Shown here piece after piece: positions 1,357 to 2,910 of a DNA stretch of 10,132 nucleotides. Where the stretch lies: IMG/VR virus record IMGVR_UViG_3300032053_009076; one strand, written 5' to 3'. The DNA comes from a virus. A program made the translations under genes and the position numbers. Positions within the stretch are counted from its first letter, which is position 1. Each line of letters begins with the position of its first letter. The notes below the pieces were generated by a model. It did no database searches and was not told the DNA's origin. It was given only the letters and a program-made list of their open reading frames with translations.

Positions 1357-2910
1357 ATGACTAGACGTACTACTCGTATACCTGTACCTGTGTCTGCGTT
1401 TGACGGGGAATATTCAGATATAGTAGTTGAAGTCGAACCTGAACACATAGTAGAATTAAATGAGATAGAAGAAGGAGATGCTGTAGAACAAGAAGAATTG
1501 ATTTCAATTCGCCCAATACCTGTAGATCCAAAGGATTTTATAAGACCTTCTAAGGAAGAAGAAGCAGCGAGAGCAGCACAAGAATTGGAACGTAATGGTT
1601 GGAAAAGCTCTGTTGCCGTAACCAATTTATTGAATACAGTTGTTCAGGAGAGCGGATTTGGAGCAAGTGATTTTGGGTTTCGTGAAGATTTAGATAAAAC
1701 AGAACGAGATCTTCAATACAATATGACAAACGGAACTGAATTTTCTGAACATGAATTGTATCCGACCTATAAAGATCTACATGGAATTCATCTCTACAAC
1801 TTTGATCCTTATCTAAAAATTGATCTCAAAGCAGAAGATCTAACCCCTGGTATTTCAGAAGCCTGCAAGAAATGTTATTTGAGAGATCTCGAAAATCGAG
1901 TAAGCATGCAGCATGTGTTTGCTGTAATGACAGTAGGTCATTCTAATTTGGTTTATTGCATTGTTGCCAGAAATGGAAAACCTTATTATATCACACAAGT
2001 GCTTCGTGCTTATTGGGCTGGATCTCAAAGTAGAGAAAAGACCAAAAAACTAATTGAAACCCCTTTAGATTTTACCTTTGAACAAAAGAAAAGATATAAT
2101 GGCGGGGATAATAAAGGTTTAGCTCGAGATCTATTAACGACAGCGATAACCAAATTGATTCGGACGAGTCGTAATTTGAACAATGAAGATGTTAAACATT
2201 TGATCAGCAAACTGAATGAAATGCTTACATCTCTGTTTACTTCTGATCGTGATAGTTATTCTTCCGCCGAGCCAAGAAATTTAACTATTTTACATTATTC
2301 TTTACTAATGAATTGCAGTAGTATATACAGAAAAGCAATTATGACCTTGATTCAAAAGAAAAATCAAGGGCAGAAAGAAGCGTTCAGAAGGGGAATGAAT
2401 GTTGGAATGCTGTTGTTTTCTGAATTGCAAAAAATAGGTTATCATTATGATAATACTTCTCGTAAATGGGTAAAAGAAGTTCAGTTAATCCCGTCAATGT
2501 GTTACAAATCAAATCAACTTTGGAAAATCAAACCTAACAAGCAGAAGTATAAATTGACAAAACTTTGGATTAGTCCTGAAGACTTTTCTGCAAATTCTTA
2601 TTCAGAGTTTCATATGACTGCTGAAGGAAATCATCCTAATGTAAATAGTAGTGGCGGAGTTTGTATTGGTGGTGATTTAAGTTCTAGATGGCAAAGGATT
2701 ATGGAACAAGATACAGCCTCTGGTGGAACAACCTTAAAGGATGCTGTTGCTGATTTCCTGATGGATGTTGAAGAATCTTTGGAAATACCCAATTTTGATT
2801 CTTCTTTTCAACAAATGGATGATTTTGCTGGTTCTACGGAATCAGCAGTATTGGATTTAACAGAGAAAAGAAAAGGTGCACCTCAGCGTAAATGGAGAGA
2901 ATTGGAATGA
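1357..2910 (+). CDS. 517-aa protein with a C-terminal UBC/E2-like ubiquitin-conjugating domain. The N-terminal ~350 aa are acidic and of unknown function.
   Basis: ATG at 1357 with 'aggaga' SD 8 nt upstream; the ORF-track start at 1294 is a GTG inside the hairpin and is unlikely. Near the C-terminus, 'EFHMTAEGNHPNVNSSGGVCIGGDLSSRW' matches the E2 active-site signature 'HPN(I/V)…G-x-(I/V)-C-(L/I)' with the catalytic Cys. Confidence 0.7.
   Translation: MTRRTTRIPVPVSAFDGEYSDIVVEVEPEHIVELNEIEEGDAVEQEELISIRPIPVDPKDFIRPSKEEEAARAAQELERNGWKSSVAVTNLLNTVVQESGFGASDFGFREDLDKTERDLQYNMTNGTEFSEHELYPTYKDLHGIHLYNFDPYLKIDLKAEDLTPGISEACKKCYLRDLENRVSMQHVFAVMTVGHSNLVYCIVARNGKPYYITQVLRAYWAGSQSREKTKKLIETPLDFTFEQKKRYNGGDNKGLARDLLTTAITKLIRTSRNLNNEDVKHLISKLNEMLTSLFTSDRDSYSSAEPRNLTILHYSLLMNCSSIYRKAIMTLIQKKNQGQKEAFRRGMNVGMLLFSELQKIGYHYDNTSRKWVKEVQLIPSMCYKSNQLWKIKPNKQKYKLTKLWISPEDFSANSYSEFHMTAEGNHPNVNSSGGVCIGGDLSSRWQRIMEQDTASGGTTLKDAVADFLMDVEESLEIPNFDSSFQQMDDFAGSTESAVLDLTEKRKGAPQRKWRELE

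Follow-up and report, generated by a model that had tools for sequence, protein, structure and literature searches.

The stretch of DNA analysed here, hereafter the window, comprises 10,132 nucleotides (nt) of the IMG/VR virus record IMGVR_UViG_3300032053_009076 and is a phage-like metagenome fragment in which all long open reading frames (ORFs) lie on the + strand. At positions 1357-2910 it encodes a 517-amino-acid (aa) protein, in which an earlier note had proposed a catalytic domain resembling those of ubiquitin-conjugating enzymes (E2s), embedded at the C-terminus. Our analysis indicates that this protein is probably the E2 of a phage-encoded ubiquitin-like protein (Ubl) conjugation cassette, which consists of a winged helix-turn-helix (wHTH)-Ubl gene (643-1272), the E2 gene (1357-2910), the gene of an activating enzyme (E1; 2907-3938) and that of a JAB peptidase (3997-4851).

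The E2-like gene and its catalytic domain

The ORF, with an E2-like motif in its C-terminal part, proved to be real as proposed: it has a ribosome-binding site (AGGAG, 7 nt upstream of the ATG), the same 517-aa product was returned by two independent gene callers on five metagenome contigs, and the protein belongs to a family of 53 representative clusters. The identical protein is encoded on five contigs of the ENA, JGI and Logan assemblies, the longest of which measures 15.8 kb. The gene is laid out as follows.

1345-1349, + strand: AGGAG ribosome-binding site of the E2 gene, from the sequence
1357-2910, + strand: E2-like protein of 517 aa, from the ORF, gene calls, family alignment and AlphaFold model
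1357-1536, + strand: aa 1-60, acidic tail containing SIRPIPV; predicted local distance difference test score (pLDDT) mostly <50, unaligned in the family
1537-2358, + strand: aa 61-334, family-specific folded alpha/beta domain and the start of a 49-residue helix leading into the UBC domain, from pLDDT and conservation
2359-2856, + strand: aa 335-500, UBC (E2) catalytic domain
2632-2640, + strand: HPN triad H426-P427-N428, placed opposite the E2 HPN in both HMMER and hhalign alignments
2662-2664, + strand: Cys436, predicted catalytic thioester cysteine; invariant and aligned to the E2 catalytic Cys
2791-2802, + strand: NFDS at aa 479-482, matching in alignments the PN-x-D-[DS]-P loop that follows helix 2 in E2s

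The core of the motif, HPNVNSSGGVCIG, occupies aa 426-438, within NHPNVNSSGGVCIGGDL at aa 425-441. Its end lies 76 aa, and Cys436 81 residues, before the C-terminus, rather than the approximately 60 aa given earlier. The description of the protein as large and acidic applies to aa 1-60 (isoelectric point, pI, 4.2), with the acidic stretch EVEPEHIVELNEIEEGDAVEQEE at aa 25-47, but not to the whole protein, which is only mildly acidic (pI 5.7), nor to aa 61-334, which are slightly basic (pI 8.3).

The AlphaFold2 model built with the family alignment had a mean pLDDT of 79.9, with 257 residues at or above 90, and across aa 331-490 most ten-residue block means exceeded 90 (range 70-97); the pLDDT of a single-sequence model was only 34.8. 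In the C-terminal part of the alignment-based model, a long helix (311-359) is followed by strands at 363-365, 370-377, 381-384, 387-391, 399-405 and 421-425, the HPN triad (426-428), Cys436, two helices (439-450 and 457-476) and then the NFDS loop. This domain has the UBC layout of helix 1, four-stranded antiparallel sheet, active-site loop and helix 2. C436, which aligns with the E2 Cys, is the predicted catalytic residue in the loop after strand 4; the Asn of the HPN triad lies 8 residues upstream, and W445 follows nine residues after C436.

Profile comparisons pointed in the same direction. When the family profile was searched against all PDB sequences, E2s took about 57 of the top 60 places, with alignments that span both HPNV-x-G-x-C and the L-x-x-PN-x-DS that follows helix 2 (for example UBE2C, LLSIQSLLGEPNIDSP versus FLLEVEETLEIINFDSSY). 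Using hhalign, we aligned family aa 335-500 with five canonical E2s at a probability of 92.3% (E 5.6e-7; 86 columns, from strand 2 to the PN-x-D loop), while the reversed-E2 control gave 0.2%; relative to the canonical E2s, the family carries an insertion of approximately 15 residues before HPN. UQ_con was the sole Pfam family matched by more than one member (4 of the 42 aligned members, best E 0.096). The E2-like assignment in the earlier note turned on whether the HPN...C region lies in a UBC alpha/beta fold; the model places it in an alpha/beta domain, and the profiles agree. Judged from the model and the alignments, aa ~340-496 form a domain that, though remote, truly belongs to the UBC superfamily and has a complete catalytic signature.

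The family was defined by searching 1.84 billion representative proteins exhaustively with HMMER, which gave 53 representative clusters (39 at E<1e-10), all from metagenomes and mostly 380-520 aa in length, with some of 590-710 aa. We read conservation from an alignment of 42 sequences, whose members are ~17-42% identical to the query. H426, N428, C436, G438, N479 and S482 are invariant, and P427 (>90%), D481 and E472 are nearly so, together with several Gly, Tyr, Lys and Pro residues in the helix and the strands just upstream. Of the 53 representatives, 51 carry the motif H[PA]N-x(3-14)-C-x-G, one member with HAN in place of HPN; the two without it are below the family norm in length (55 and 250 aa) and probably incomplete. 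Since at least about 290 residues precede HPN in every family member, the two-part architecture defines the family.

A word-indexed homology search with the E2-like protein found no match beyond itself, and the single sequence gave nothing meaningful against Pfam, PHROGs, PADLOC, NCBIfam and PDB (phmmer); none of the 42 members matched PHROGs. Among 50,697 GenBank phage records, no match was found either by megablast of the window or by tblastn of E2 and E1, and no relative turned up in 185,579 species genomes (one per species) scanned with a single protein and, at the DNA level, with a degenerate motif. Being missing from Pfam, PHROGs, PADLOC, NCBIfam, the GenBank phage records and the species-genome motif scan, the family is at present invisible to annotation pipelines.

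The N-terminal two-thirds had been described as unannotated, and this stood. Residues 1-60 are predicted to be disordered and do not align across the family. In contrast to this tail, aa ~61-334 are confidently folded (pLDDT ~90-97 over aa 90-250), with strands within 187-212 and helices on both sides in the model. Conservation begins around aa 130, with the motifs LP...L...H.YN..P, F.V.TVG..N.V...I...G...F and L.N.N..YR. This region had no significant match to a known family in Pfam, PHROGs, PADLOC, NCBIfam or PDB sequences, and no fold could be assigned to it. A tandem arrangement with a UBC- or RWD-like N-terminal domain was considered and found unsupported, as hhalign detected no similarity of the N-terminal profile to E2s or to the UBC domain of the family itself.

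Two further patterns were noted at the ends of these proteins. A short motif, I-[RT]-[QP]-I-P-[IV], occurs in the disordered N-terminal tail of E2 and in the C-terminal tail of E1 of the same phage: in the window as SIRPIPV (E2 aa 50-56, nt 1504-1524) and as ITQIPVHP plus a terminal GIRQIRI (E1 C-terminus, nt ~3873-3935), and in another cassette-bearing contig, L010, as GIRQIPIAP and VIRQIPIPA (E2 N-tail and E1 C-tail). Both proteins may use it as a docking peptide for the same partner. Several types of E2 C-terminus also exist: [LF]-R-[RK]-[VI]-COOH in about half of the 53, W-x-E-L-[ED]-COOH in the clade of the window and ...NLL in the long forms. The JAB protein of contig L014 (10639-11262) likewise ends in FRRI.

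Partner genes and their genomic setting

Using tblastn and ORF maps, we found the order Ubl-E2-E1-JAB in seven divergent viral contigs of one lineage of large uncultured bacteriophages, with orthologues 25-48% identical: four IMG/VR contigs of 34-236 kb (L006-L009), a 201-kb JGI contig with an RNA-polymerase-like gene (L014), and L010 and L015. The longer order of an uncharacterised 324-355-aa protein, a wHTH protein with an NKAG end, E2, E1 and JAB recurs across several contigs. The other genes and features of the window are listed below.

1-593, + strand: 3' portion of a conserved gene that encodes 324 aa in the full contig, L001, with homologues two genes upstream of E2 in L007, L008 and L014
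643-1272, + strand: 209-aa protein, candidate Ubl, directly upstream of E2 in 6/6 contigs reaching that far
1255-1269, + strand: N-K-A-G codons and an extra F, predicted site of JAB processing and E1 adenylation, from homologue C-termini
1283-1300, + strand: G+C-rich hairpin followed by TTTTGTTTCT (T-run), in the gap between the end of the Ubl candidate gene (1272) and the E2 start codon (1357), from a consensus scan only
2907-3938, + strand: 343-aa ThiF/MoeB-type E1 adenylating enzyme (Pfam ThiF 1.6e-12; PADLOC Cap2; PDB matches)
3997-4851, + strand: 284-aa JAB/JAMM metallopeptidase, predicted to act in Ubl maturation and/or deconjugation
4869-7445, + strand: 858-aa homologue of the eukaryotic major vault protein, MVP (Pfam MVP_shoulder 9e-28, Vault_3 1e-10; PDB MVP 3e-16)
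7512-7977, + strand: two or three small ORFs, one weakly ribbon-helix-helix (RHH)-like in L001
8111-8914, + strand: GIY-YIG (LEM-3-like) homing-endonuclease-type gene, between the MVP gene and Gat-QueC
~8857-10132 (L001 13771-15474), + strand: Gat-QueC, a glutamine amidotransferase-QueC fusion

The start codon of E1 overlaps the stop codon of E2 (ATGA) and is preceded by GGAGAG; judged from this junction, the two are separate genes and are predicted to be translationally coupled. E1 matches the E1 part only of the PADLOC Cap2 'E1-E2' models (down to 6e-13), and its PDB matches are MoeB, MccB, Uba4 and UBA5. It is a single ThiF domain of 240-355 aa among orthologues, in seven of which GxGGIG, D82, SNLNRT, K103 and DCRD are invariant; its ATP and adenylation motifs are retained. 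The sole invariant Cys lies inside DCRD, with no other conserved Cys, and G208-Y209 and S214 are invariant in the predicted loop where E1 catalytic cysteines usually lie. A second, short ThiF-like protein of 200-204 aa is encoded near the cassette in two contigs of jumbo size, L008 (13866-14468) and L014 (11322-11936), with Pfam ThiF matches of 1e-7 and 1.5e-4, and was not seen in the clade of the window; it could be an E1 partner subunit or an unrelated adenylating enzyme. The JAB protein has an intact JAMM signature, E...HxHx7SxxD, with E64, H111, H113, S121 and D124 invariant, and weak, sub-threshold Prok-JAB matches (E 6e-4 to 0.1) were obtained for the window protein and 4/5 scanned orthologues.

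In the 209-aa protein a winged-helix-like domain at the N-terminus is joined by a low-complexity linker to a C-terminal domain of ~100 aa, which ends in NKAG|F; one source labels a homologue as a transcriptional regulator. In 19 homologues N-K-A-[G/A] is invariant. It either forms the C-terminal end or precedes one of several unconserved extensions (F, Q, QK, LTV or a 17-residue tail), so that 0, 1, 2, 3 or 17 residues come after it. An invariant NKA[G/A] with a variable tail is the pattern expected of a modifier that is exposed by a peptidase and then adenylated, and the wHTH protein is likely the Ubl modifier. The hairpin behind its gene may be a partial or leaky terminator, by which the modifier would be made in excess over the enzymes.

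For the 324-aa upstream gene, which has no Pfam match, it is uncertain whether it belongs to the system. Just upstream of it a small protein of 77-83 aa is conserved (L007 6347-6598, L008 7394-7639, L001 4257-4490), which in L007 and L008 carries a CxxC...C motif with the look of a zinc ribbon. In L007, a 361-aa TnpB/IS605-OrfB-like gene (7651-8736, - strand) is inserted between the conserved gene, there of 336 aa, and the Ubl gene.

The upstream flank contains SbcD/SbcC-like genes; their closest relatives in culture are those of SPO1-like Bacillus and Staphylococcus phages (~30% identity). An Asgard archaeon was considered as the host and ruled out, because the nearest cultured relatives of the neighbouring genes are those of bacterial phages. 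Downstream, the cassette is usually followed by a Gat-QueC gene resembling those of deazaguanine-modifying phages, as in L007 (998 aa, with a large insert), L008 and L010; in L014 the 6 kb that follow JAB contain no called Gat-QueC gene. The MVP gene was also considered as a component and ruled out, given its absence from all other cassette-bearing contigs. Among GenBank phage records, homologues of it occur only in LR756500, LR756501 and LR756503, which are huge uncultured phages of 462-735 kb; they align along the entire protein at ~40% identity. In the window it looks like an insertion between JAB and Gat-QueC, of which the homing-endonuclease-type gene and the small ORFs are probably part.

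Proposed function and competing explanations

If the cassette conjugates proteins, JAB would trim the Ubl precursor to expose ...NKAG, removing one Phe in this phage, and E1 would adenylate the NKAG C-terminus. The acyl group would then pass to Cys436 of E2; because E1 has no conserved catalytic cysteine, it would do so directly from the adenylate or via the invariant loop residues Tyr209/Ser214, a route that would resemble the E1 of the bacterial Bub system with its invariant crossover-loop tyrosine (PMC11601596). A target amine (lysine) could resolve the E2~Ubl thioester, aided by Asn428 and by Asp481 in the N-x-D-S loop. Given that no E3 gene is present, the N-terminal E2 domain of ~270 residues would be the best candidate for choosing the target or for holding E1 and Ubl, and thus the likeliest target selector or assembly platform. 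Target choice by the E2 has likewise been proposed for the E3-less BilB (PMC11601596). The large eukaryotic E2s UBE2O and BIRC6 offer a further parallel.

As for the biological role, we favour one in the phage's own infection programme, in which a phage or host protein is modified, over a dispensable accessory island, since the cassette is syntenic across the lineage in a replication/recombination region with SbcCD-like and Gat-QueC neighbours. In its broadest form, that a whole lineage of large uncultured phages carries a complete Ubl pathway as a core function and tags host or phage proteins during infection, this is a proposal to which we give slightly less than even chances.

Several observations weigh against these readings. 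No single E2 match is significant, whether of UQ_con (best E 0.096) or of the PDB profile matches (E 0.08-0.8). The gathering threshold of Pfam UQ_con (PF00179) was not reached, and the window protein itself had no UQ_con match; the E2-like protein is therefore a remote homologue and not a Pfam-defined member of UQ_con. A Foldseek search of the whole model against PDB and BFVD returned nothing significant, probably because the query is multi-domain. The alpha3/alpha4 pair typical of the fold was not found: after NFDS there remain ~35 residues with one 4-residue helix, and pLDDT drops below 50 from aa 500, a stretch so short that these helices appear to be missing. With regard to the modifier, the C-terminal domain of the Ubl candidate matched neither ubiquitin, NEDD8, SUMO1, ThiS or MoaD (hhalign) nor any PDB sequence, and it ends in AG or AA, not GG. 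Finally, since these contigs belong to a single phage lineage, conservation of gene order is by itself weak evidence that the genes are functionally linked.

The most serious alternative concerns the biological role and not the enzymology, namely that the cassette is a phage-carried defence or counter-defence module, which would tag a structural protein of a competing phage in a Bil-like manner (superinfection exclusion) or modify and neutralise a host immune protein. The prokaryotic systems of E1, E2, JAB and Ubl characterised to date, type II CBASS with Cap2/Cap3, Bil and probably Bub, are bacterial defences against phages and act in phage-host conflict (PMC10557695, PMC11601596), and the large N-terminal domain of E2 could recognise targets, as proposed for BilB. 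However, the cassette keeps one syntenic position beside SbcCD-like genes despite the 25-48% identity of its orthologues, and so looks lineage-core rather than like a mobile island. Moreover, neither CapH/CapP nor WYL regulators are present, PADLOC matches only the generic E1, and the motif scan of the 185,579 species genomes found no cellular counterpart. We therefore regard such a module as improbable, with perhaps one chance in a handful.

Two explanations would instead deny the E2 its conjugating activity, and both are unlikely because the E2 catalytic set is invariant. In a sulfur-carrier pathway, E1 would make a C-terminal thiocarboxylate (as on ThiS, MoaD and CysO), JAB would mature or recycle the carrier, and the Cys protein would serve as a persulfide relay feeding nucleoside or DNA modification by neighbours such as Gat-QueC. 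Operons for sulfur transfer with ThiS/MoaD, JAB and E1 are well known (PMC1779556), the best named matches of E1 are the ThiF and MoeB adenylyltransferases, E1 lacks a catalytic Cys, and Gat-QueC follows the cassette in several contigs. On the other hand, the partner bears a complete E2 signature (HPN, Cys, N-x-D-S), which has no role in sulfur transfer, the cassette has no rhodanese, cysteine desulfurase or sulfur-acceptor enzyme, and the carrier ends in AG/AA and bears a winged-helix domain. Gat-QueC is, in addition, separated from JAB by the MVP gene, the small ORFs and the homing endonuclease in the window contig, with none called in the next 6 kb of L014. We consider this pathway very improbable, and slightly more remote still is a catalytically dead UBC-like scaffold of UEV or RWD type that binds only Ubl or E1, with HPN...C as a relic: UEV domains have no Cys, whereas here H426, N428, C436, G438, N479 and S482 are invariant at ~17-42% overall identity, the pattern of a constrained active site.

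If the cassette does conjugate proteins, phages too use ubiquitin-like tagging, be it for their own infection cycle or against host immunity. With its near-canonical HPN-Cys E2, private N-terminal domain and minimal Cys-less E1, it would be a compact, E3-free system suited to the study of E2 target selection and of transfer from adenylate to E2, and its E2 adds a data point on the spread of canonical E2 catalytic features beyond eukaryotes. Should the broader proposal of a core pathway be true, the lineage would combine a Ubl of DNA-binding (wHTH) type, an enzyme resembling E2/E3 hybrids, a Cys-less E1 and JAB. The E2 active site would then be the most eukaryote-like (HPN/Cys/N-x-D-S) yet seen outside archaea and eukaryotes, and the pathway would be a viral counterpart of Bil, CBASS and Bub, forming a new branch that bears on how E2s arose.

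Comparison with known ubiquitin-like systems

The E2-like protein shares the UBC fold and the HPN triad with the canonical eukaryotic and archaeal UBC-type E2s (UQ_con; UBE2D2, UBE2C, UBE2N). The spacing from Asn to Cys is 8 residues, as in UBE2D2, a Trp follows the Cys in both (C436-W445 here, C85-W93 in UBE2D2), and the loop after helix 2 reads NFDS here, PNIDSP in UBE2C and PNPDDP in UBE2D2. Unlike these enzymes, it has a 340-residue N-terminal extension and a 15-residue insertion between beta4 and HPN, apparently lacks alpha3/alpha4, and is encoded by a bacteriophage beside a minimal ThiF-type E1. In the large eukaryotic E2s UBE2O and BIRC6, too, the UBC domain sits at the C-terminal end or close to it, and the remainder of these much larger proteins selects substrates, a logic of E2/E3 hybrids. 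The C-terminal placement of the UBC domain is the same here, but the non-UBC parts have no detectable homology, and the phage protein is far smaller and belongs to a prokaryotic virus.

Among bacterial systems, Bil (BilABCD, types I and II) likewise consists of four parts, Ubl, E2, JAB and E1, without an E3; its JAB pre-processes the Ubl C-terminus, and its E2 is thought to pick the target (PMC10557695, PMC11601596). The gene order differs, being Ubl-E2-deubiquitinase (DUB)-E1 in Bil and Ubl-E2-E1-JAB here, and so does E1, which in Bil is a multidomain IAD-AAD-CYS protein with a catalytic Cys but here a single ThiF domain whose sole invariant Cys lies in DCRD. BilB is small and lacks the His of classical E2s in type I (6d/Bil), while CEHH residues replace it in type II (PMC1779556, PMC10557695). 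Bil is moreover a bacterial defence gene set, whereas the cassette is encoded by a phage; it also lacks the multidomain Cys-bearing E1 and the gene order that define Bil.

In the Bub system (6E/DUF6527), BubB uses Ser and oxyester chemistry, in contrast to the invariant Cys of the phage E2, and components are fused (Ubl-E2, JAB-E1 or E2-E1) and accompanied by the serine protease BubE, whereas the genes here are unfused. DUF6527 was not found in Pfam scans, and the cassette has none of the Ser, BubE and fusions that mark Bub. Type II CBASS employs the same E1, E2 and JAB chemistry in Cap2/Cap3, and the phage E1 matches the E1 part of the PADLOC Cap2 models. In CBASS Cap2, the conjugated C-terminus need not be Gly-Gly. 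Cap2 is, however, an E2-E1 fusion with an Atg3/Atg10-like E2 that conjugates the CD-NTase, while E2 and E1 are separate here, and neither a CD-NTase nor an effector was found in Pfam and PADLOC scans of the window proteins, which sets the cassette apart from CBASS. In its apparently missing C-terminal helices and its minimal Cys-less E1 the cassette resembles Bub and Cap2; the C-terminal E2 helix pair is absent from Cap2 and BubB as well (PMC11601596). The Bub E1, which has no catalytic Cys, carries an invariant crossover-loop Tyr (PMC11601596), to which Tyr209 of the phage E1 may correspond.

The nearest report is that on the Asgard-archaeal 'Nidhogg' viruses, the ThiF/E1-like genes of which were proposed to engage ubiquitin-like systems (bioRxiv 10.1101/2021.07.29.454249). 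That report concerns viral E1 homologues only, which would hijack the E2 and Ubl of the host, whereas here the virus encodes Ubl, E2, E1 and JAB. Neither a Ubl-E2-E1-JAB cassette encoded by a phage nor an E2 of such architecture was described in the literature covered by full-text searches. The earlier note was also right that the arrangement differs from Cap2 and BilB: E2 and E1 are separate, coupled genes, and E2 is matched by none of the NCBIfam and PADLOC models for known E2 families or systems. As far as its residues indicate, the predicted active site of this E2 is more canonical than that of Cap2, BilB or BubB.

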